Positions 15,842 through 40,845 of a DNA stretch of 40,845 nt are shown piece by piece. Both the position numbers and the translations under genes were made by a program. The notes beneath the pieces are model-generated. The model was not told where the DNA came from, made no database searches, and worked only from the letters and a program-made list of their open reading frames with translations. The stretch comes from a virus: IMG/VR virus record IMGVR_UViG_3300032272_000033, positions 1-40,845 of that record; one strand, written 5' to 3'. How positions within the stretch are numbered: the first letter of the stretch is position 1; every line of letters begins with the position of its first letter.

Positions 15842-16306
15842 ATGACAGAAGTAGAAGAGCTTATCACACAAAGAGTACATGCTCTGTGGGATACAGTCGA
15901 AGATGAGTATGGCCCCTGTCCGAGCATTTCATTCAAGGTGACAGGGTCTTGTGCTGGTAAGGCAAACAAAAAAGAGGTTATGTTCAATGTGAAGATAGCT
16001 GAGGATAACTTAGATGACTTCTTGAGAGCAACCGTTCCTCACGAATTAGCACACACGATTGTTAAGCGCAAGTACCTGCACCGCACCCAATCTCATGGAT
16101 ATGAGTGGCGAGTAGCCTGTATCCTGTTAGGAATGAAGTACGACGACATAAGAGCACGACATAGCCACACTGTCGGACGCACAAAAATTAAGACTGAAGA
16201 CGTACAATGCGAACTATGTGAAAAGGTTGCATTCGTCTCATTCGTTAAGAAGCACAACATGCAGATCAAGCGCTACATCTGCCGATGTGGCGGGAGAATG
16301 AAGTAA
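15842..16306 (+). CDS. SprT-like zinc metalloprotease, 154 aa
   Basis: HExxH in VPHELAHTIV, a downstream SHGYEW motif, and a C-terminal Cys4 ribbon (CELCEK...CRCGG). AGGAGG SD. Confidence 0.7.
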   Translation: MTEVEELITQRVHALWDTVEDEYGPCPSISFKVTGSCAGKANKKEVMFNVKIAEDNLDDFLRATVPHELAHTIVKRKYLHRTQSHGYEWRVACILLGMKYDDIRARHSHTVGRTKIKTEDVQCELCEKVAFVSFVKKHNMQIKRYICRCGGRMK

Positions 16307-20308: not shown

Positions 20309-20515
20309 ATGCCTAAGAAAAAGAATCCTTGGCTAATATGTTGGAAGCCAAAAGGAGCTAGAGACACTGAGTATGCTCCAGTAGTGAGTGGCCGTGTCTA
20401 CGGTAACTATAATGATGCTGCAATACACCTAACCAACTGGCGTAAGACTAGTGTCTATTCTGAGTACAAGAACTGTATTCTAAAACCTATTAGATTTGAG
20501 AGGGCCTATGTCTAA
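20309..20515 (+). CDS. Hypothetical protein, 68 aa
   Basis: TAGAGAGGAGAT SD before ATG 20309. Confidence 0.65.
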   Translation: MPKKKNPWLICWKPKGARDTEYAPVVSGRVYGNYNDAAIHLTNWRKTSVYSEYKNCILKPIRFERAYV

Positions 20516-21386
20516 TCCAAACAGAGAGTTCGACAAAACTCACCTGTCGGTTGATCAAGCAGAACAAAGGGGTTTTATTCATCGCGATTATCTCGCACAT
20601 TGTTTCAGATGGACGCATGTGGTTAAGTATCTGGGACAGAAGCAAAGATATCAAACAGCCGAGATTCTTGATATCGGTTGTGGCAAAGAGACTCCACTGA
20701 TCAAGACTCTGTATACAAGTAAGATGACACCACCGCGCTACACGGGTGTGGACATCAACAACATACCACTCACAGATATTCATGATAAGATATCAGCTAA
20801 GGGGTGTGATTTAAGTATTATTGGAAACTGTAATTTCGTTGAAGAGAATTATTTTGACAAAAATAGTGATCCTGCTATAAGCACTGTTAAGCCTTTCTCT
20901 GTTATAACCTGCTTCGAAGTCCTTGAACACATGCACCCACGTCATGTACTACCCACCCTCAAAAGAATACATGCCTTGCTACAACCCGGAGGCCGAGCAT
21001 TCATATCAACCCCTGTCTACAATGGCAAAGCCGCTGCGAATCATATCAATGAGATGACGTACCATGCTATGCGCAATCTATTAATAGAAGCTGGTTTCTG
21101 TATTGAAGCTCGATATGGAACCTTTGCTAGCCAGTCTGAGTACAAAGGGCGTCTTGACTATATTCTTGAGGCTCCTGGTGCTAACAAGATCTTCGACATG
21201 ATGTCAGAATACTACGACAGTAATGTCATGTCCACCATCTTCGCCCCACTGATTCCAAGCATGTCACGCAATGTGATGTGGGTATTGAGCACAGAACCTA
21301 ATCATGAAGGTCTCATTGATATAAACCACCACAGCCACCAACCCTGGTCATCATCTGAGGATTGGTCGCTGTTGTTTGGAGAATAG
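20508..21386 (+). CDS. Class I SAM-dependent methyltransferase, 292 aa (substrate unknown)
   Basis: Motif I ILDIGCGKE, plus GVDIN, VITCFEVLEHM and LQPGGRAFISTP. I did not see DNA N6/N4 (D/N/S-PP-Y/F) or C5 (PC...ENV) motifs. ATG 20508 lies after GAGAGG. Confidence 0.8.
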   Translation: MSNPNREFDKTHLSVDQAEQRGFIHRDYLAHCFRWTHVVKYLGQKQRYQTAEILDIGCGKETPLIKTLYTSKMTPPRYTGVDINNIPLTDIHDKISAKGCDLSIIGNCNFVEENYFDKNSDPAISTVKPFSVITCFEVLEHMHPRHVLPTLKRIHALLQPGGRAFISTPVYNGKAAANHINEMTYHAMRNLLIEAGFCIEARYGTFASQSEYKGRLDYILEAPGANKIFDMMSEYYDSNVMSTIFAPLIPSMSRNVMWVLSTEPNHEGLIDINHHSHQPWSSSEDWSLLFGE

Positions 21387-21791: not shown

Positions 21792-21836
21792 GCTACACTA
21801 GGCCACCAACCCTGATATTTGGAGAACCAGACAATT

Positions 21837-22382
21837 ATGGAAAAAGACGACATACCAAGCAGTCCTGATTTACATGCAGACGTAAAAGAATTCTACAAAA
21901 AGTTTGAACTCGGATTACGAGACAAGCCTGAACAGTTGAGACAGAGTGCTAATGGACAGTTGATGGTTAATGAAGCCATCCACCAAATGTCCTTCACTTA
22001 CAATTTCTTGGTAAATCAATCAAAGCCTGAAGGGTGGACCAAGGATGATGAATTTCTTCGCTTCAGAACAGCGGCTATGCTAGAAGAGCTTATTGAGTAT
22101 CTTCAAGCTGTTAGAGATTGTGACTTGGCTGGTCAATTTGACGCTCTTGTAGATCTTACTTACTTTGCTGTTGGTACTGCTGAGGGACACAAGTTTCCGT
22201 TTAACGATGGCTGGGATCTAGTCCATGCCTCTAACATGAGTAAAGAGCGCGCAGAGTCTAATGGTGAGTCCAAGCGCTTTAGCAAGTGGGATGTTGTGAA
22301 GCCTCACGGCTTCGTGGCTCCTGATCTTAAACTCCTATTGGAGCAAAATCCACATGTCGAAGAAGAAAACACAGAAGATTGA
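21837..22382 (+). CDS. MazG/PRA-PH-like all-alpha NTP pyrophosphohydrolase, about 181 aa
   Basis: AAMLEELIEYLQA...FDALVDLTYFAVG...VHASNMSK...VVKPHGFVAPDL matches the E-x2-E ... D-x2-D metal motifs and the C-terminal pattern of phage MazG-like enzymes. The start is either ATG 21837 or TTG 21819. Confidence 0.7.
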   Translation: MEKDDIPSSPDLHADVKEFYKKFELGLRDKPEQLRQSANGQLMVNEAIHQMSFTYNFLVNQSKPEGWTKDDEFLRFRTAAMLEELIEYLQAVRDCDLAGQFDALVDLTYFAVGTAEGHKFPFNDGWDLVHASNMSKERAESNGESKRFSKWDVVKPHGFVAPDLKLLLEQNPHVEEENTED

Positions 22383-22704
22383 TGTGGCTCGGTTGCAACA
22401 TTTGACTGAAGTCAGAGGTGAAGCCTATGGTCCAGCACTACCTCAGTTAAGAAATGTAGGCCAAATGATGCACGCGATCATCTGCGAGTATTATCAGATC
22501 AAACTACCACCACTACCGGCTGACATCACCTCTTTGATGATAGCCACTCTCAAGATAGCGAGAGCTTCTCGTCCTGTTCCTTACCATAAGGACAACTACG
22601 AGGATGCTATCAATTATCTATCATTCGCTAATGACTTTCATCCTGATAACCAGAATGATGCTGAAGATGATCTGGATATCTTGGAGGCGGGTCGTGTTTG
22701 TTGA
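22354..22704 (+). CDS. Small helical protein of the R-x3-YG ... LKIAR ... D-x2-D type, 116 aa
   Basis: EVRGEAYGP...IATLKIARAS...HKDNYEDAINYL resembles the small domain found with or next to phage nucleotide pyrophosphohydrolases (from memory). It overlaps both neighbours. Confidence 0.45.
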   Translation: MSKKKTQKIDVARLQHLTEVRGEAYGPALPQLRNVGQMMHAIICEYYQIKLPPLPADITSLMIATLKIARASRPVPYHKDNYEDAINYLSFANDFHPDNQNDAEDDLDILEAGRVC

Positions 22705-23476
22705 CGCTAACCGCGTGTACTTTGACGCCTTGTCCCGATTAACGGGACTTGGTGTTGAGGTAGATGTACGCGGTCACGTTACCAAAGAACTTATCAACCA
22801 AACATATGTTGTGCCTATTGAGTATCCAGAGATCAACATACCAGAAAGAAAACTAAGCAGCCCGTTTAGATCAGCAGAGGCTTGGTGGATATTGAGCGGT
22901 AGAAATGATCTGGATTTTATTAAACAGTATGCTCCATCTATCAAGAGATGGTCAGATGATGGTTACTTCATGGCAGGAGCATATGGGCCTCGAGTGGTTG
23001 ATCAGATTCCTTATGTTCTAAAGTGCTTTAAAGAAGACCTGTCAACACGTCAAGCTATTATCTCTATATGGAGATCCAGTCCAACAAAGTCTCTAGATAT
23101 TCCGTGCACTCTGTCATTACAGTTTCTTGTGAGAGATATGCCGGGTAAACAGGGGACTGTTCGTGAACTCCATTGTATTGCTAATATGAGATCGTCAGAT
23201 GCATATCTTGGCCTTCCATATGATCTGTTTACCTTCAGCATGATAGCCATCTATATTGCTCTACTGTTGAAGGAGACAAAAGGTGTGTGCGATCTTACAT
23301 TGGGTGCTCTACATCTCAACGCAGCAAGTTCTCACATCTATCAACGTGATGAGAACAAAATCAGACAAGTCATACAGCATGATCCTGGTTTGGTTAGAGG
23401 CTCTGCTGATTATGATTTGAAAGCCTTTGACAAGCCAGAGGAGCTACTATGGCATCTTGAAAGGAACTTTCGATAA
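22694..23476 (+). CDS. Thymidylate-synthase-fold enzyme with Asp at the base-specifying position: predicted dCMP C5-hydroxymethylase/methylase, 260 aa
   Basis: GGAGG at 22683-87 lies 6 nt before GTG 22694. The motifs are the catalytic Cys in DIPCTLSLQFLV, MRSSDAYLGLPYDLF (Asp codon 23222-24 where ThyA has Asn177), and SSHIYQ. Confidence 0.75.
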   Translation: MFVDANRVYFDALSRLTGLGVEVDVRGHVTKELINQTYVVPIEYPEINIPERKLSSPFRSAEAWWILSGRNDLDFIKQYAPSIKRWSDDGYFMAGAYGPRVVDQIPYVLKCFKEDLSTRQAIISIWRSSPTKSLDIPCTLSLQFLVRDMPGKQGTVRELHCIANMRSSDAYLGLPYDLFTFSMIAIYIALLLKETKGVCDLTLGALHLNAASSHIYQRDENKIRQVIQHDPGLVRGSADYDLKAFDKPEELLWHLERNFR

Positions 23477-23667
23477 TGAAAATTGTGATAATAGATAATT
23501 TCGGAAGAGAAGGCCCAGGCTACGACGACACCCTCGTCGCTGAAAACGTGAACAAGCCGTACGGGGAAAAGATAGTAGAGCTTCTCAACAAAGGGGAGTG
23601 GGAAGGAAGCAATGACTTCTACACCCTACAAGAAGACGACTACCACTTACGGGAGTTTAAACCATGA
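23476..23667 (+). CDS. Hypothetical protein, 63 aa
   Basis: TAATG overlap with the upstream stop and ATGA overlap with the downstream start. Confidence 0.65.
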   Translation: MKIVIIDNFGREGPGYDDTLVAENVNKPYGEKIVELLNKGEWEGSNDFYTLQEDDYHLREFKP

Positions 23668-24104
23668 ACAGAATCAGTGAAGAAGAGTATTTCCTTGGGA
23701 TAGCGGAGTGGGTTGCTAAGAGAGCGACCTGCTCCAGGGATAGTGTGGGGTGTGTGTTGGTATCAATTGATAACAAGATATTGTCCACAGGTTATAACGG
23801 TGTCCCAAAAGGCCATCCTCATTGCACTGATACCCCTTGTCCCGGCGCTAATTATGCATCGGGAGAGGGGCTTGATGTCTGTGAGGCTACTCACGCAGAA
23901 CAGAATGCTTTACTGCAATGTAGTGATGTAGATAAGATATACGCCTGCTATACAACAAAGGCTCCGTGTCTTACATGCACCAAACTGTTAATGAATACAA
24001 GCTGTGTTCAGATCTATACGAGGAAAGAGTACAGCGAAGAAGCAAAACAGATGTGGTTGAAGAATCCTTTATCTGGTAGGAAATTTGATGTGCTAAACGC
24101 ATGA
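23664..24104 (+). CDS. dCMP deaminase (CMP/dCMP deaminase zinc-binding family), 146 aa
   Basis: HAEQNAL and PCLTCTK zinc motifs, and STGYNGVPKG. Confidence 0.9.
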   Translation: MNRISEEEYFLGIAEWVAKRATCSRDSVGCVLVSIDNKILSTGYNGVPKGHPHCTDTPCPGANYASGEGLDVCEATHAEQNALLQCSDVDKIYACYTTKAPCLTCTKLLMNTSCVQIYTRKEYSEEAKQMWLKNPLSGRKFDVLNA

Positions 24105-25915
24105 CACAGATGAACATGTTTAATCCTGAGAAACGAAATTGGGCACCGCCAGAGGTGTTGCCCAATTTCTCTCATGCTAAAATCATAGGAGTTGATTGTG
24201 AAACAAGAGATCCAAACCTTAATGAGTATGGTCCAGGAGGGGCGCGAAAAGATGGTGAGGTCGTCGGGATCTCTCTCTCAGATGGCTATAAGTCCGTTTA
24301 TCTTCCGTTCGGCCATGAGGGCGGAGGTAACCTTGACAGGTCTCTTGTGCTACGATATGCAAAGGATGTACTTAGTACAACAACTCCCAAAGTCGGAACT
24401 AAATTGTTGTACGATCTTGAGTGGCTCAGGACTCTTGGTATCGAATGTAATGGTAAACTGCACGATATTGCAATCGCTGAGGCTCTTCTTGACGAAAATA
24501 AACGAGGAAGGTATAGTCTCGAAGCTATATCACTTGAACACCTTGGAGTTGGCAAGAGCGAAGAAGTATTAAGACAAGATGCCGACTTCATGGGGGTGGA
24601 CCCAAAGAGTGGTCTTTGGCAACTACCCTCATGGAGTGTTGGAGAGTATGCCGAAATTGATGCAAGAAACCCGGTGCTCATACTAGAGAAACAAATAGAA
24701 CTACTTAAAGATCAGGATTTACTTAAGATTTATGGGCTAGAAACAGATTTAATGAGACCTCTGCTTGAGATGAGGTTTAAGGGAGTTGCTTACAATGAAC
24801 AAGGGGCTTATGATTTAGGTCAGCAGTTACAAAAACAAGAAATGATAAACAGGCAGCGCCTGGGAATCAATCCTAACTCCAATACGGAACTGACTTGGTA
24901 TTGTGAGAAGAATAAGATTGAGTATCCAAGAACAGCCATATATATCAACAAGAGTGGAAATGAGGCAGGAGGTAATCCTAGCTTTACTGCAGACTTTCTA
25001 AAGAACTCTGAGAATAAGTTCTTCCAGCAGGTGAACGATCTTAGAGTTGCTACGAAGATGCGGAAGGATTACATAGATAAACTCTTAAGAATGTGTGTTA
25101 ACGGGAGAATCCACTGTGAGTTTAACCAATTTATCTCAGACGACTTTGGTACTAAAACTGGGCGATTTAGTTCGTCTAACCCAAACCTGCAACAAATACC
25201 CAGTAGAGATAAGTTCTGGGGACCTCTCATCAAATCGCTTTTTATCCCAGATCCAGGTCAGCGATGGTGTCGTTTGGATTATTCACAGCAGGAACCGCGA
25301 ATCACCATCCACTGGGCGGCGGCCTGTGGGATCCAATCGGCGATAGAGGCTGCTCAGCTATACATAACTAATCCAGACCAAGACTTCCATCAAATGGTTG
25401 CTGACATGGCTGGTATATCTCGTGACATGGCCAAGGGGATTAATCTTGGTCTTAGTTATGGTATGGGCGTACCTAAGTTAGCTACAATGCTCGGCCTATC
25501 TGAAACAGACGCTTACGAACTAATGGATTTGTTCCATGCTAAGGTACCCTTCATTAGAAAGCTACAGGCTAAATGCGAGCAAGCTGTTAGGATGAGAGGA
25601 TGCGTAACCACTCTGTTGGGTAGGAAAAGACATCTCAATCCAGATATTGGTGGGCATACGTTCCTGAACTCCTTAGTCCAAGGATCGGCTGCTGATATGG
25701 GAAAGAAAGCTATGAGAGACCTCTACTATGATCACAATATAATCCCTTTGATCATGGTTCACGACGAGTTCGACTTATCCATTGCTGAGGATTCAGACTA
25801 TGAGGTGCCACAACGTGTTATGAAAGAAGCTATAAAGGTGCTCGTTCCTATGAAGGTTGACGTTGAGGTTGGATCATCATGGGGAAACCTAACTAAAATG
25901 AAGGAGGCTGCATGA
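24101..25915 (+). CDS. Family A DNA polymerase with 3'-5' exonuclease domain, 604 aa
   Basis: Exo I GVDCET. Pol motif A RLDYSQQEPR, motif B RDMAKGINLGLSYGMG, motif C MVHDEF. Confidence 0.95.
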   Translation: MTQMNMFNPEKRNWAPPEVLPNFSHAKIIGVDCETRDPNLNEYGPGGARKDGEVVGISLSDGYKSVYLPFGHEGGGNLDRSLVLRYAKDVLSTTTPKVGTKLLYDLEWLRTLGIECNGKLHDIAIAEALLDENKRGRYSLEAISLEHLGVGKSEEVLRQDADFMGVDPKSGLWQLPSWSVGEYAEIDARNPVLILEKQIELLKDQDLLKIYGLETDLMRPLLEMRFKGVAYNEQGAYDLGQQLQKQEMINRQRLGINPNSNTELTWYCEKNKIEYPRTAIYINKSGNEAGGNPSFTADFLKNSENKFFQQVNDLRVATKMRKDYIDKLLRMCVNGRIHCEFNQFISDDFGTKTGRFSSSNPNLQQIPSRDKFWGPLIKSLFIPDPGQRWCRLDYSQQEPRITIHWAAACGIQSAIEAAQLYITNPDQDFHQMVADMAGISRDMAKGINLGLSYGMGVPKLATMLGLSETDAYELMDLFHAKVPFIRKLQAKCEQAVRMRGCVTTLLGRKRHLNPDIGGHTFLNSLVQGSAADMGKKAMRDLYYDHNIIPLIMVHDEFDLSIAEDSDYEVPQRVMKEAIKVLVPMKVDVEVGSSWGNLTKMKEAA

Positions 25916-26352
25916 GCCAAAAAGAAACTGAGTTTAGAGCCAAGTTCACGAAGAAAGTACGAGGCCACTGGTCTCTTATTGAGACAAGCGCTGGTGTTGG
26001 CATCCCAGACACTTCTTGGTCTACTCCAGGCTACACCTACTGGTGCGAGTTCAAAGTAACACACAAAGGAAAAGTACACTTAAAAAGATCTCAATGGTCT
26101 TGGAACGTTGAGCAATCTAAGTTTCATATGAACTCAATCCTAATCACGAGAGATTCTGATAACCCAGATATAGTTCTATTGTTCAGAGCACCTAACCTGC
26201 TTAAGCTTGCGCAAAGAACTATAAAAGAAGATAAAAAAGCCGTTATCCTGTCATTCAATGAGATGCGAACTATGGGAACAATTGTTGATATGAGGGATAA
26301 GGATCTGACCGATAAACTCAGAGCGTTTTGTATAAATAGTAAACTTTATTAA
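25912..26352 (+). CDS. VRR-NUC / PD-(D/E)xK nuclease, 146 aa
   Basis: GIPD ... CEFKV ... LKRSQWSW fits the PD...ExK core plus the VRR-NUC downstream Q-x2-W pattern. Confidence 0.6.
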   Translation: MSQKETEFRAKFTKKVRGHWSLIETSAGVGIPDTSWSTPGYTYWCEFKVTHKGKVHLKRSQWSWNVEQSKFHMNSILITRDSDNPDIVLLFRAPNLLKLAQRTIKEDKKAVILSFNEMRTMGTIVDMRDKDLTDKLRAFCINSKLY

Positions 26353-26416: not shown

Positions 26417-26722
26417 ATGCCTAAAGTATATGTTGTCGAGGATCCAAAGAATAAGAATATATCCTCAGCAACCAAATTCGGCGATATAGAGGTTCTATTG
26501 CCTGACTCAGAGATTACTTTCTCTACTGGAATGGCTTGCAGAATGATTCGACGCAAGTTAGCTGGTTTCAGTGATGAAGACTGTCTGTTGCTTATTGGCA
26601 ATCCAGTGAGTATTGGAATAGCAGTAGCTATAGCCATGGACATAAACTTTGGTCGGACTAAGCTACTGAAGTGGGACAACCAAGAAAGGATTTATTACTT
26701 ACTAAAAGCAGATATTAACTAG
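26417..26722 (+). CDS. Hypothetical protein, 101 aa
   Basis: TAGAGAGGAGAT SD. Follows an AT-rich gap containing a perfect TATAAT (26385-90). Confidence 0.7.
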   Translation: MPKVYVVEDPKNKNISSATKFGDIEVLLPDSEITFSTGMACRMIRRKLAGFSDEDCLLLIGNPVSIGIAVAIAMDINFGRTKLLKWDNQERIYYLLKADIN

Positions 26723-26735
26723 AGAGGAGATCTGT

Positions 26736-27272
26736 ATGTTTGATGAAGAAATTGAAGAACTACCTGATGCCCAAATGTCTGAGCTTACTGACATGGCTCA
26801 AGCTCTTATTGAGCAGAGAGCTGAGATCGGTCAGTTAGAAGAGGCCCTTATGGCTGCATCAACTGAAGAAAAACGTCTTAGTGAGATAGTTATTCCTGCA
26901 AAGATGTTATCTCTAAACCTGCAATCTATTACCTTGAGTAATGGAGCTAAACTAGAGATCAAGCACAAGTTTGTTGGCTCGATCCCTAAGGATCCTGATA
27001 AGCGTATCAGAGCCTTTGACTGGCTCATCAGCCACAATCTTGAAGATATCATCAAAAACGAAATCAGATGCGACTTCAAGAAAGGTGAAGGTGAGGTTGC
27101 TCAAAAGGTTATTGACGCTCTTACAGAGATCGGTGTTGATTGGTCTCGTAAGAAAGATGTCCACCACCAGACCCTGAAAGCAAGTGCAAAGGATTTGCTT
27201 AGTAAAGGTATAGCAGTGCCTCTCGATACGCTTGGGCTATTCGAGATAGATCAAACACACATCAAGCTCTAA
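26736..27272 (+). CDS. Hypothetical protein with acidic coiled-coil N-terminus, 178 aa
   Basis: TAGAGAGGAGAT SD. A recombination role is a guess based only on its neighbours. Confidence 0.65.
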   Translation: MFDEEIEELPDAQMSELTDMAQALIEQRAEIGQLEEALMAASTEEKRLSEIVIPAKMLSLNLQSITLSNGAKLEIKHKFVGSIPKDPDKRIRAFDWLISHNLEDIIKNEIRCDFKKGEGEVAQKVIDALTEIGVDWSRKKDVHHQTLKASAKDLLSKGIAVPLDTLGLFEIDQTHIKL

Positions 27273-27307
27273 ACACCACTTACAAACGTTTTTTTGGAGA
27301 AATTACA

Positions 27308-28069
27308 ATGGCGAAGAAAGATGCAGTAGCAGTTAAAGAAGATGCAACCATGGCACCAATTGAGGACATGGAAGCAGACGCTGGAGAGGGAATGGAGCTC
27401 ATCGGCGTCAATGATCTGGTAGTACCCCTGTTCGTGATTCTTCAGGCGTTGAGTCCGCAATGCGACAAAACAAAAGATGAGTACATGGATGGTGCTGAAC
27501 AAGGGAATTTTTATCTCAAGAGTAAGGAAGTGCTCTACGATGGTGAAAAAGGTGTTGATGTTATTCCTTGCTTCTATGATAAGAAGATCTTTGAGTGGGG
27601 ACCAAATCGCGGTGGGCTGAAAGGTGTTCATCCATTGGATACTCCGCTCATGAGGCAGACCTCCACTGACAATGAAAAAGGTATCCCAACACTTGGAAAT
27701 GGGAACACCTTGGTTGAAACTGCTCAGTACTACTGCCTTCTTGTTGATGGTGATAAGATTGAGCCGATCGTTATCGGTATGTACAGTACTGCTTTAAAGA
27801 AGTCTCGAGCATGGAACTCTGCTATTAAGAACCTGGAAGTTCGGCGTGCAGACAAGACTACTTTCAATCCACCTATCTACAGTCATATCTACACTGTGAA
27901 AACAGTCATCGAGCGTAAAGATGACAACTCATGGTATAACTGGGATATCAACGTTAAGGAGATTATCTCCAACAAAAATCTCTATGATGCAGCCAAGTCG
28001 ATCTACCACATGGCTATCAAAGGCAATGTAGAAGTTCAGGCTGACGCAGGCGAATCAATCCCTTTCTAA
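27308..28069 (+). CDS. Putative ssDNA-binding protein (gp2.5-like size) with acidic ...ESIPF C-terminal tip, 253 aa
   Basis: The C-terminus ADAGESIPF mimics the acidic tail ending in Phe found in bacterial SSB (DDDIPF) and T7 gp2.5. It lies in the replication module. Confidence 0.45.
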   Translation: MAKKDAVAVKEDATMAPIEDMEADAGEGMELIGVNDLVVPLFVILQALSPQCDKTKDEYMDGAEQGNFYLKSKEVLYDGEKGVDVIPCFYDKKIFEWGPNRGGLKGVHPLDTPLMRQTSTDNEKGIPTLGNGNTLVETAQYYCLLVDGDKIEPIVIGMYSTALKKSRAWNSAIKNLEVRRADKTTFNPPIYSHIYTVKTVIERKDDNSWYNWDINVKEIISNKNLYDAAKSIYHMAIKGNVEVQADAGESIPF

Positions 28070-38708: not shown

Positions 38709-40845
38709 TATAGCTCCTTAAGTTTCTTTTTAAGCTGTGCTCTCCTAGCGGCTAAACACTCAACAGCCGACTTACCGCCCTTGCTCACCTGAGTATCCAG
38801 TTTTTCAGTTTCTTTAAAGTCCTCATTAACCTTATCTATCTTAGCATTGAGAACATTTTTATCTACATCTTCTAATCCGTCTCCAATACTTCTAAGGTCT
38901 TCAGTAATTTCATCGATGTCTTGATCCATATCCGAGATAAAGTCATCATCTGTCTTAGCTACGAAAGGATCATCACTAGAGAAGAAATCTGGATCGTCTG
39001 GAATGTCATTCAGCACTGCATCATCTAGCTCATTAAAACGCTCAGCAACATCTAAAGCATCCTTAGGAGGTATAGGCTCCACAACACCGTGAAGAATCTC
39101 AGCCTCAAGTTCTTTCTTAGGTATGCCGGACTTGCCCTCTGTTACACGCTTGACAGGTATCTTTTTACCATCGATTTCGATAAATTTAACACTCTCAATT
39201 ACACCTGGTGCATCTTTGGGTTGACGTGTGGACTTCTTTTTAACTTCTTTAGTCTCACTAATACCATCGATTGACTCATTTTTTGCGGGTTGTTGATTTG
39301 TCCCGAGGTCATCTACACCTTCTTCTAGAGCATCTAACTGAGACTCAATGGTCTTCAGTCGAGCATCTGTGGCTTTCTTTTCTAGCTTACTAGATTTAGG
39401 CCTGTCTTGTTTTAGCTTCCTTCTAAGGGCTTTTAATTCCTTGATGAGCTGAACAGGGGTCTTTTCACCGTCTTTTAAAAAGGATTCTATCTTGCTAGCT
39501 TCTTGCTTCTTCTTCTTGCGCGCCTTAACCTTTTTATCGGACCTTATGATTGGTTCCACATCAACACGCCCTTTATTAAGCATCTGGCCTACGGCTGTTG
39601 TCCTGGCTGCAAGGTCTGTCTCAGGATCCACAAGGTCTTTGATGGTTGGTTGCTCCTTAGCAGGCTTGGCAACTATTTCTTTTACTTGTTCACTGCGCTT
39701 AGGAATATCAGGATCAGCCTCAGCCTTCGCTTTAATTCCTGGAATAGGCTCATCAATATCAAGCACCTGTAGAAGATCTACGACGCCGTCCTGAGTTTCT
39801 TGGATAGCCTCAACGTATGCTTGCTTTAGAGAATCATCCACCTCATCAATGATACTACTGAACTCATTTAAGTCTGTTGATTTCTCTGCATCGTCAACAC
39901 GGCTTAGAACAGTCTCAAGTCTTGTTGCTAGTTCAGGATCAGTGTCTTTTACGGCCGCCATCTCATCACGCACTTGAGCTCGTATATCTTCAATAACCTC
40001 AGGAGCAGCCTCACCGATAGTGGCTCCTCGTCCTGCGCGTATACGATCGCCTATGTTACCTGCGAGAGGATGTAGAGCAGCGCCGAAAACGCTACCGAAT
40101 GCTACATTAAGAACCGCATTGTGCATAGCATAATCAGCACCAGTAACTGAGGTGCCAGCCAAAGCAAGAGGCTCTAGCAGAGCAGTACCTAGAGAACCCT
40201 CTATAGTTCCGACAATAGCTCTTCCTTTTAATGTACCAAATCTAGCAACAAGAGCAGCAGCACGGGTCTCTCTTACGAAAGGAATAAACAAAGCGCCGAG
40301 GTTGATAGGATCAAGAGCAAGGGTAATCATCTCCATAGACAAAGCGGCCGTATTGTTTAGGACTCCTCTTGTTCTGTTCTGAATATCTATATCTCGTAAC
40401 TCTTCTAGCTTTTTGAAGTGGAGTATATCTGCTTCTTCAAATGTAACGTTGTCATTGAATTTAAGATGTCCAGGTATCTCAAATCGAGCATTAGCCTCTT
40501 CTGCAGTGAGTATAGCGGATCGAGGATTGAGTTCCTCAAGAGGCAGAGTATGAGCATCAATAGACTCAGTAAGTAGAGCAAGAGGTCCTGACGGTACGAA
40601 CTCAAAGTCTTTCTCACCTCTAGTTCCGATAGGCTCTTTTGTAGCGCCACGTGCTCTGTTAATAGAGTCTATATCAAGCAAGGCTTGAACACCACCCCCA
40701 AGTCTTCTAGCGAAGTTAACAGCCGTATCAGAAAACTGGCCAAAAGAAGAGTCGAAGCCATCTCTTGCAAATGTAGCCTTTGCAGGATCATCGAATCGAC
40801 GAGGCATAACAAGACCATCGCTTTTGGCTCCACCGTCAAAGGTGG
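38708..40845 (-). CDS. Internal virion/ejection protein, main part (true start is at window position 299 across the circular junction)
   Basis: The frame stays open upstream of the ORF-track ATG (40807) to the window end and continues in frame into 128-299. It has Gly/Ala-rich hydrophobic segments followed by a long Lys/Glu/Asp-rich tail. Confidence 0.8.
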   Translation of the reverse strand, partial: TFDGGAKSDGLVMPRRFDDPAKATFARDGFDSSFGQFSDTAVNFARRLGGGVQALLDIDSINRARGATKEPIGTRGEKDFEFVPSGPLALLTESIDAHTLPLEELNPRSAILTAEEANARFEIPGHLKFNDNVTFEEADILHFKKLEELRDIDIQNRTRGVLNNTAALSMEMITLALDPINLGALFIPFVRETRAAALVARFGTLKGRAIVGTIEGSLGTALLEPLALAGTSVTGADYAMHNAVLNVAFGSVFGAALHPLAGNIGDRIRAGRGATIGEAAPEVIEDIRAQVRDEMAAVKDTDPELATRLETVLSRVDDAEKSTDLNEFSSIIDEVDDSLKQAYVEAIQETQDGVVDLLQVLDIDEPIPGIKAKAEADPDIPKRSEQVKEIVAKPAKEQPTIKDLVDPETDLAARTTAVGQMLNKGRVDVEPIIRSDKKVKARKKKKQEASKIESFLKDGEKTPVQLIKELKALRRKLKQDRPKSSKLEKKATDARLKTIESQLDALEEGVDDLGTNQQPAKNESIDGISETKEVKKKSTRQPKDAPGVIESVKFIEIDGKKIPVKRVTEGKSGIPKKELEAEILHGVVEPIPPKDALDVAERFNELDDAVLNDIPDDPDFFSSDDPFVAKTDDDFISDMDQDIDEITEDLRSIGDGLEDVDKNVLNAKIDKVNEDFKETEKLDTQVSKGGKSAVECLAARRAQLKKKLKEL
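40719..40845. repeat. Second copy of the 127-bp assembly overlap
   Basis: Identical to 1-127. Confidence 0.97.

Follow-up and report, generated by a model that had tools for sequence, protein, structure and literature searches.

The gene at positions 22694-23476 of a 40,845-nucleotide phage sequence (IMG/VR record IMGVR_UViG_3300032272_000033; this whole stretch is called the window) probably encodes a folate-dependent deoxycytidylate (dCMP) C5-hydroxymethylase of a separate, MilA-like branch of the thymidylate synthase (ThyA) superfamily, as predicted from its sequence, and the family A DNA polymerase of the phage (PolA) would incorporate 5-hydroxymethyl-dCTP (5hm-dCTP) in place of cytosine. 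The phage very probably replaces the cytosine of its DNA with 5-hydroxymethylcytosine (5hmC) or a derivative of it. A first-pass annotation of this DNA had proposed a cytosine-specific enzyme of the ThyA fold and a modified cytosine in the phage DNA. This reading is now supported by alignments, by an Asp at position 177 throughout the clade, by MilA being the best match in both sequence and fold, and by the published use of the same residue and the same gene neighbourhood as markers of cytosine-modified phage DNA.

The reading frame begins at GTG 22694, in frame with the stop at 23474-23476. This start, as first read, is preferred over an in-frame ATG at 22604 because the GTG is preceded, at a distance of 6 nt, by a GGAGG Shine-Dalgarno sequence and because the public gene call on the same contig holds the identical protein of 260 amino acids (aa).

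22694-23476, + strand: ThyA-fold enzyme, predicted deoxycytidylate 5-hydroxymethylase, 260 aa (from the open reading frame (ORF), family matches, alignments, model and tree)

The product belongs to the thymidylate synthase superfamily, far beyond chance (Pfam Thymidylat_synt PF00303, E = 4.9e-17, 62.4 bits vs a cut-off of 24.3; PHROG thymidylate synthase families, E down to 6.6e-32). Its scores with all NCBIfam ThyA equivalog models fall far short of the cut-offs (36-50 bits vs 108-405), the best being 49.8 bits for a cut-off of 327. The catalytic Cys, Glu58, Tyr94, Arg166, His207 and Tyr209, which mark the superfamily, are invariant in the alignments, and further catalytic apparatus of the fold is kept (the phosphate-binding arginines and, in E. 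coli numbering, Asp169). The motifs first quoted from the translation are all found in it, namely DIPCTLSLQFLV, which holds Cys138, MRSSDAYLGLPYDLF, which holds Asp177, and SSHIYQ. The key codons of the gene, with their E. coli ThyA equivalents, are as follows:

Glu62; Tyr97; Arg119 (= E. coli Arg126')
Asp135 (= Leu143), GAT at 23096-23098; Cys138 (= Cys146), TGC at 23105-23107; Thr139 (= His147)
Arg166, Ser167 and Asp169; Asp177 (= Asn177), GAT at 23222-23224; His214 and Tyr216

We compared the residues that are diagnostic of base, product and sugar (positions 80, 126', 143, 147, 167, 169 and 177, E. coli ThyA numbering) with those of reference enzymes of known product: E. coli ThyA, T4 gp42 (5-hydroxymethyl-dCMP, 5hm-dCMP), MilA (5-hydroxymethyl-CMP; aligned from a partial sequence, residues 27-220), SPO1 gp29 (5-hydroxymethyl-dUMP), RB69 gp48 (5-hydroxy-dCMP), and Xp12 gp59 and PaMx74 gp52 (5-methyl-dCMP). 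At position 177, Asn reads uracil and Asp reads cytosine, and N177D gives a preference for dCMP; at position 143, a bulky hydrophobic residue keeps water out and leads to a methyl product, while Asp or Glu correlates with hydroxymethyl products; and D169N is the mark of flavin-dependent 5-hydroxy-dCMP synthases (PMC13326640). In T4 gp42, Asp145 (position 143) holds and activates the water by which the exocyclic methylene is hydrated; the activity of D145N is significantly reduced (PMC6400193). Ser167 and Arg126' set the preference for deoxyribose, and MilA has Ala and Lys at these positions (PMC5175136). Positions 177 and 147 are the two most associated with cytosine-modified metagenomic contigs (PMC8670742). 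The residues found were:

Window protein: 143 Asp, 147 Thr, 169 Asp, 177 Asp, 167 Ser, 126' Arg
T4 gp42: 143 Asp, 147 Thr, 169 Asp, 177 Asp, 167 Ser, 126' Arg
MilA: 143 Asp, 147 Thr, 169 Asp, 177 Asp, 167 Ala, 126' Lys
E. coli ThyA: 143 Leu, 147 His, 169 Asp, 177 Asn, 167 Ser, 126' Arg
Xp12 gp59 and PaMx74 gp52: 143 Asn, 147 Pro, 169 Asp, 177 Asp, 167 Ser, 126' Arg
RB69 gp48: 143 Glu, 147 Thr, 169 Asn, 177 Asp, 167 Ser, 126' Arg
SPO1 gp29: 143 Asp, 147 Asn, 169 Asp, 177 Asn, 167 Ser, 126' Arg

At each of the six positions the window protein has the residue of T4 gp42, and at the four that concern base and product also that of MilA; it differs from each other enzyme type at one diagnostic position at least. 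Three independent alignments place its Asp177 opposite E. coli Asn177, T4 gp42 Asp179 and MilA Asp186 (numbering of PMC5175136), so that the Asp originally seen in place of the ThyA Asn, as in T4 gp42, is borne out. Two details of T4 gp42 given in the first-pass annotation also proved correct, MCT in contrast to the ThyA-type His (PCT in the window protein) and GSLHVY without the ThyA Asp (ASSHIY in the window protein). Trp80 is replaced by Ile in the alignment with the characterised enzymes. It had been held at first that a methyl and a hydroxymethyl product could not be told apart from the sequence; positions 143, 147 and 169, however, all point to hydroxymethylation. The protein combines the features expected of a dCMP hydroxymethylase, with Asp177 for the base, an acidic 143 and a residue other than His at 147 for the product, and the deoxyribose-type pair Ser167/Arg119 for the sugar. 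The marks of thymidylate synthase proper (EC 2.1.1.45; Asn177, Leu143, Trp80 and His147) are lacking, as the protein has Asp177, Asp143, Ile80 and Thr147 and the NCBIfam scores given above.

Among solved structures the best sequence match is MilA (E = 2.5e-21, phmmer vs the PDB entry), with thymidylate synthases following from ~1e-8, and the two proteins are 35% identical over MilA residues 27-220 (pairwise BLASTP, 1.5e-31). An AlphaFold2 (AF2) model built on 72 relatives was of high confidence (predicted local distance difference test, pLDDT, 94.6), and its best Foldseek matches were seven MilA chains (template modelling score, TM, 0.79-0.83, E ~1e-21 to 1e-22; top match E = 2.5e-22, TM 0.82). 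ThyA structures followed at TM ~0.7 and E ~1e-14, the probability being 1.00 to both ThyA and MilA. In a rough neighbour-joining tree, built without bootstrap, the clade stands next to MilA and then SPO1 gp29, with the Xp12 and PaMx74 methylases apart. The fold search and the phylogeny that the first-pass annotation had proposed as checks thus gave MilA as the best fold match and a grouping with MilA and SPO1 gp29.

The same residues recur in relatives. In IMG/VR, a pattern scan turned up relatives at 582 loci or more; 80 of these were kept for neighbour counts (the flank exceeds 3 kb upstream in 70 of them and downstream in 65). The residue signature, Asp177 included, is invariant in an alignment of 72 relatives; in the IMG/VR set Asp177 is present in 80/80 and the full signature D-C-T-S-D-D in 78/80, the remaining two having Ala at 167. 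This Ala-for-Ser exchange is the change that gives MilA its tolerance of ribonucleotides.

In the window, the ThyA-like gene lies within a cassette of the following genes:

20496-21386, + strand: class-I S-adenosylmethionine (SAM)-dependent methyltransferase, Methyltransf_23 (Pfam; weak sub-threshold similarity to UbiG)
21819-22382, + strand: MazG/PRA-PH-type nucleoside triphosphate pyrophosphohydrolase (NTP-PPase) (PF01503, 1.8e-8; phrog_671, 5e-21; PDB 3nl9, a putative NTP-PPase)
22354-22704, + strand: DUF6378 protein, 116 aa (PF19905), in the slot of the P-loop kinase-like gene of relatives
23476-23667, + strand: small ORF, 63 aa (phrog_19873 and phrog_21874, function unknown), coupled between the ThyA-like gene and the deaminase
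23664-24104, + strand: dCMP-deaminase-family zinc deaminase, 146 aa (PF00383, 3.4e-17; PF14437; phrog_174)
24101-25915, + strand: PolA, family A DNA polymerase with a 3'-5' exonuclease domain (PF00476, 1e-53; PF01612)

The gene overlaps at 22694-22704, 23476, 23664-23667 and 24101-24104 are all as first described, and together with the profile matches they uphold the dCMP deaminase and the DNA polymerase as coupled neighbours. The methyltransferase upstream, which had not been singled out before, is a conserved member of the cassette; UbiG is a small-molecule O-methyltransferase, and the gene product is not of a canonical DNA methyltransferase family. The MazG-like protein (the public gene call begins at 21837) is homologous to the PRA-PH domains encoded upstream of the Xp12 and PaMx74 enzymes, and we infer that it is a dCTPase that supplies dCMP and removes dCTP. 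The Xp12 'hydrolase (HAD superfamily)' and the PaMx74 'nucleotide pyrophosphohydrolase' upstream of the methylases both contain a PRA-PH/MazG domain. The PDB matches of the deaminase are generic dCMP deaminases (2hvv, 2w4l, 4p9c, 1vq2, 7fh4); a finer typing, as a canonical dCMP enzyme or one selective for 5-methyl- or 5-hydroxymethyl-dCTP, could not be assigned from these matches, the published selective enzymes being polyphyletic. The 63-aa ORF was found by tblastn in none of the 80 relatives.

Two NTP pyrophosphohydrolases had been proposed upstream of the ThyA-like gene. This stands for 21819-22382, which matches PF01503, but fails for 22354-22704, to which PF19905 is the only match and whose confident AF2 model (pLDDT 91.3, five helices, all-helical) has no match in the PDB at E < 0.8, MazG included. 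The matches of this model in BFVD are mostly other DUF6378 proteins, and none is of characterised function. A word-indexed protein search for DUF6378 homologues returned only the protein itself, and exhaustive HMMER searching 244 representatives at E < 1e-3, so that the domain is widespread in phages; ten multi-domain relatives contained no informative partner domain. Residues K67, R70, D80 and D84 are invariant in 62 homologues.

The window is one complete, circularly assembled phage genome of ~40,718 bp with a terminal duplication, so a gene missing from the window is missing from the phage.

1-127 and 40719-40845, no strand: exact 127-nt repeat, the assembler's circular overlap

In the 40,859-bp source assembly ('k141' prefix) the overlap was probably 141 nt, 14 of which were trimmed from the window. 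Searching the whole genome by tblastn with five reference proteins found no deoxynucleoside monophosphate (dNMP) kinase, dihydrofolate reductase (DHFR) or T4 beta-glucosyltransferase below E = 0.5, and Pfam, PHROG and NCBIfam scans of ~48 ORFs found no dNMP kinase, DHFR, ThyX, carbamoyltransferase or glycosyltransferase. The reported lack of a dNMP kinase, glycosyltransferase and carbamoyltransferase thus holds genome-wide as far as these scans reach, and the genome has no separate ThyA or ThyX.

Among the related loci, flanking genes were found at these frequencies:

MazG/PRA-PH gene upstream: 70/70
Methyltransf_23 SAM methyltransferase: 63/70
dCMP-deaminase-family gene downstream, mostly directly after the ThyA-like gene: 56/65
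PolA: 58/65
P-loop nucleotide-kinase-like gene directly upstream: 68/80
DHFR: 0/80
T4 beta-glucosyltransferase: 0/80

The P-loop gene of relatives matches profiles of thymidylate kinase and deoxynucleoside kinase only below threshold. DUF6378 occupies this slot in three of the 80 relatives, in this lineage only, and the two are never found together. These three closest relatives have the same gene order, with a PolA identity of 44-48%. Fifteen loci additionally carry another, shorter methyltransferase of the Methyltransf_23 family. In a collection of 50,697 phage records, the Methyltransf_23 gene was found in only five (four phages), all with the ThyA-like cassette, and it is common on phage-sized metagenomic contigs. 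The cassette spans unrelated phage backbones, including a DnaB/ERF-type phage contig, and is found in Stenotrophomonas phage AXL3, Pseudoxanthomonas phage PW916 and two Manatee Spring contigs; the window methyltransferase is homologous to AXL3 gp31 and to a Manatee Spring contig gene. In Pelagiphage HTVC200P, no MazG, methyltransferase or deaminase is annotated in the ~6 kb to each side of the ThyA-like gene. The homologues of HTVC200P, AXL3 and PW916 are publicly labelled 'thymidylate synthase' and 'deoxyuridylate hydroxymethyltransferase', and the part of the literature that was searched yielded no assay of any enzyme from this clade. ThyA with PRA-PH and dCMP deaminase/MafB19 (and PolA and PolA-exo) is described in two reports as a neighbourhood specific to cytosine-modified contigs (PMC8670742; bioRxiv 10.1101/2024.12.05.627091). 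The DNA of AXL3 was cut by only two of 37 restriction enzymes, both with A/T-only sites, the 35 with G/C in their site being blocked (PMC7504290), and our literature search found no later identification of its modified base.

In the mechanism that we propose, Cys138 would attack C6 of dCMP, methylene-tetrahydrofolate would give its one-carbon unit to C5, and Asp135 would place a water that hydrates the exocyclic methylene instead of a hydride transfer, yielding 5hm-dCMP and tetrahydrofolate; with tetrahydrofolate as the product, no DHFR would be needed. The MazG-like enzyme would convert dCTP to dCMP, both feeding the hydroxymethylase and draining the dCTP pool, and the deaminase would divert some dCMP to dUMP for the host to turn into dTMP. 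A kinase, with the nucleoside diphosphate (NDP) kinase of the host, would lift 5hm-dCMP to the di- and triphosphate. Most relatives appear to encode such a kinase directly upstream; in this phage the step may fall to a host enzyme or to an unrecognised one, possibly the DUF6378 protein. Incorporation of 5hm-dCTP by the phage PolA would then give virion DNA with 5hmC for cytosine, resistant to restriction, and the conserved SAM methyltransferase may modify the base further. Such a scheme would be T4 logic built from non-orthologous parts. In Xp12 and PaMx74, a DHFR beside the cassette fits reductive methylation because folate is oxidised there, and its absence from this genome and from the 80 relatives fits hydroxymethylation, although a host DHFR could serve.

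Several points weigh against a dCMP hydroxymethylase that supplies replication. The contact between Asp177 and the base is deduced from alignment to MilA, T4 gp42 and ThyA and is not a coordinate measurement, and the rule for positions 143 and 147 is a correlation based on a small number of characterised enzymes. Nor is this rule purely steric, since the residue at 143 in the Xp12-type methylases is Asn and not hydrophobic. Outside the motifs the window protein is barely alignable with T4 gp42 (25% identity over 84 residues, E = 2e-6) and falls outside its full-length sequence family (the Straboviridae orthologues); this remote relation and the branching on the MilA side indicate a functional analogue in another branch rather than a gp42 orthologue. 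The adjacent deaminase resembles the layout of phages with 5-methylcytosine (5mC), in which deaminases make dTTP from 5-methyl-dCTP. Finally, T4 in E. coli needs its own kinase for 5hm-dCMP, and no dNMP kinase is recognisable in this complete genome, which leaves the flux to the triphosphate unproven.

The deaminase layout leads to an alternative that we consider unlikely, in which the gene encodes a deoxycytidylate methylase of the Xp12 kind, forming 5-methyl-dCMP by reductive methylation, with 5mC in the DNA and a deaminase that makes dTTP from 5-methyl-dCTP. Asp177 alone makes ThyA a dCMP methylase (literature cited in PMC8670742), but the residue comes here with Asp143, as in all three characterised hydroxymethylases (Asn in the methylases, Leu in ThyA), with Thr147 instead of the Pro of the methylases, and with Ile in place of the Trp80 of all methyl-forming enzymes. 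The order PRA-PH, ThyA-like gene, deaminase is that of Xp12 and PaMx74; yet the DHFR that stands beside the cassette in both of these proven 5mC phages is found neither in the complete genome nor in the 80 loci, and the clade, only 23-25% identical to their enzymes, branches with MilA and SPO1 gp29. A methylase would also agree with five of seven deaminase-linked metagenomic ThyA homologues having made 5-methyl-dCMP (bioRxiv 10.1101/2024.12.05.627091), and in a genome without ThyA or ThyX it would be economical to obtain thymine via 5mC. It is improbable, too, that the enzyme acts on dCMP without a wholesale replacement of cytosine, the modification being partial or serving mainly to manipulate the nucleotide pool since a kinase is missing. 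In favour of this, the complete genome shows no detectable dNMP kinase, and DUF6378 takes the kinase slot in this lineage only (3/80 relatives). Against it, host CMP/dCMP kinases or the DUF6378 protein could supply the step, and MazG, deaminase and PolA are intact and translationally coupled, and are kept in the three closest relatives. Partial replacement would suit HTVC200P and the bare surroundings of its ThyA-like gene, but DNA of the AXL3 type is blocked at essentially all tested sites that contain G/C.

Three other activities are each very improbable. A flavin-dependent 5-hydroxy-dCMP synthase of the RB69 gp48/DLP3 gp80 type, with 5-hydroxycytosine as a primer for glycosylation, would fit the Asp177, acidic 143 and Thr147 that the window protein shares with RB69 gp48, and the RB69 gp48 family was long mistaken for dCMP hydroxymethylases (PMC13326640); the window protein nevertheless lacks D169N, Asp169 being invariant in its clade, it keeps Gly173 and Tyr209 where RB69 gp48 has Val and Phe, and the scanned ORFs of the genome include no glycosyltransferase or NDP-sugar genes. 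There is equally little to recommend an ordinary thymidylate synthase or dUMP hydroxymethylase fed with dUMP by the dCMP deaminase: the public annotations of the HTVC200P, AXL3 and PW916 homologues suggest it, and an adjoining deaminase suits a dUMP user, as in SPO1, but every clade member has Asp177 where ThyA and SPO1 gp29 keep Asn, the NCBIfam ThyA cut-offs are missed widely, AXL3 has a separate ThyX for dTMP synthesis, and its DNA is blocked at sites containing G/C and not at A/T-only sites. As for a MilA-like hydroxymethylase of the ribonucleotide CMP, which we regard as hardly plausible, MilA is indeed the best match by sequence and fold and two of the 80 relatives carry the MilA-like S167A; however, the Ala176/Lys133' pair behind the ribose preference of MilA is Ser167/Arg119 here, as in deoxy-specific enzymes, the A176S/K133R double mutant flips the preference of MilA to dCMP (PMC5175136), and the gene sits inside a phage DNA replication operon.

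Within the hydroxymethylase reading, we tentatively raise the possibility that the Methyltransf_23 enzyme acts on the hydroxymethylase product and that DUF6378 stands in for the kinase step in this lineage. If so, the DNA of this widespread uncultured group, and that of AXL3 and PW916, would contain a methylated form of 5hmC, such as 5-methoxymethylcytosine, for which our literature search returned nothing in natural DNA. It is possible, though less likely than not, that the methyltransferase turns the final base into something as yet undescribed.

The remainder of the genome, which comes from a metagenomic contig, is that of a phage: it encodes a terminase, a portal-type adaptor, a major head protein, internal virion proteins and two tail proteins in PHROG families that include T7-like tail tubular proteins. 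A megablast search of the 8 kb around the ThyA-like gene against 50,697 phage records gave no match, and the phage therefore has no close cultured relative. Its replication module comprises PolA, a primase, two helicases and Pam3 gp32/33/34-like proteins. Other features are:

296-2716, - strand: ORF of 806 aa at one end of the structural module, matched by nothing in Pfam or PHROG; a possible receptor-binding or tail-spike protein
15842-16306, + strand: SprT-like zinc-metalloprotease-domain protein, among the early genes (PF10263, 1.1e-9)
25912-26352, + strand: 146-aa ORF with an ATGA overlap with the end of PolA (translational coupling), kept in 47/80 related loci; no Pfam match, only a weak PHROG 'DNA helicase' match (1.4e-5)
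26417-28069, + strand: three consecutive genes matching Pam3_gp32, DUF7307 (Pam3 gp33-like) and Pam3_Gp34 (E 1e-20 to 6e-55), which recur downstream of PolA in 20-28 related loci

No tRNA genes were found in the whole window. Across its length the tetranucleotides CCGG (0.41 times the expected count) and AATT (0.45) are low and GATC (1.47) and AGCT (1.40) high; the counts of short palindromes in the whole window reveal no general avoidance of restriction sites and are too weak as evidence either way.

That virus-encoded ThyA homologues make C5-modified dCMP before replication is already known, and both the Asp177 marker and the neighbourhood have been published. What is new is that a large MilA-like clade is assigned, by prediction, to the hydroxymethylase type and that the public annotations are corrected, together with the tight linkage to a SAM methyltransferase and the presence of DUF6378 instead of the kinase in this lineage. 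If the assignment is right, this phage and several hundred uncultured relatives replace cytosine by means of a hydroxymethylase lineage distinct from that of the T-even phages. The modified DNA of such phages would behave differently in sequencing, cloning and restriction-based virome methods, and the enzymes of the clade would be candidates for 5hmC chemistry. The cultured phages AXL3 and PW916 make the identity of the restriction-refractory base, and the part played by the linked methyltransferase, directly answerable.

Compared with known systems, the window protein has the same fold, the same predicted chemistry and the same base, product and sugar residues as T4 gp42 (EC 2.1.2.8). The T4 pathway (gp56 dCTPase, gp1 dNMP kinase and the dCMP deaminase cd) would share with it the logic of dCTP removal, hydroxymethylase and deaminase. 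In contrast to T4, the dCTPase role would rest here on a MazG/PRA-PH protein and not on a gp56 homologue, there is no gp1-like kinase and no glucosyltransferase, the polymerase is PolA and not PolB, and a SAM methyltransferase, absent from T4, is linked to the gene. The closest characterised relative is MilA, from mildiomycin biosynthesis in Streptomyces (PDB 5b6d, 5jp9), with which the window protein shares Asp143, Thr147, Asp177, Ile80 and an AYGPR motif; MilA, however, prefers the ribonucleotide (Ala176, Lys133') and serves antibiotic biosynthesis and not DNA. With Ser and Arg of the deoxy type at these two positions, the window protein falls outside the MilA/BcmA class of CMP hydroxymethylases. 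The window protein falls outside the RB69 gp48/DLP3 gp80 class, as Asp169 is retained, and outside the SPO1 gp29 class of dUMP hydroxymethylases, as position 177 is Asp and not Asn.

The Xp12 gp59 and PaMx74 gp52 methylases share Asp177 and the order PRA-PH hydrolase, ThyA-like gene, dCMP-deaminase-family gene. They differ in Asn143, Pro147 and Trp80, their phages have no Methyltransf_23 gene, and a DHFR, absent from the window genome, follows directly after the deaminase in Xp12 and lies just downstream in PaMx74; of the marks of this class (Asp177, Asn143, Pro147, Trp80 and a linked DHFR) only Asp177 is thus present here. The cytosine-modified metavirome contigs of the MetaGPA studies have the same Pfam set in the same arrangement, with Asp177 used as a marker. 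The enzymes validated in those studies were of the methylase type, together with a carbamoyltransferase, and the portion of their text that was searched makes no mention of the conserved Methyltransf_23 gene or of the DUF6378 variant. Among cultured phages, AXL3 carries a syntenic cassette (gp27-gp31; 34% identity for the methyltransferase, 39% for the ThyA-like protein and 40% for the deaminase, the NTP-PPase being shared as well). Both AXL3 and PW916 are siphoviruses of ~63% G+C content with a kinase in the slot held here by DUF6378, and AXL3 has a ThyX in addition.

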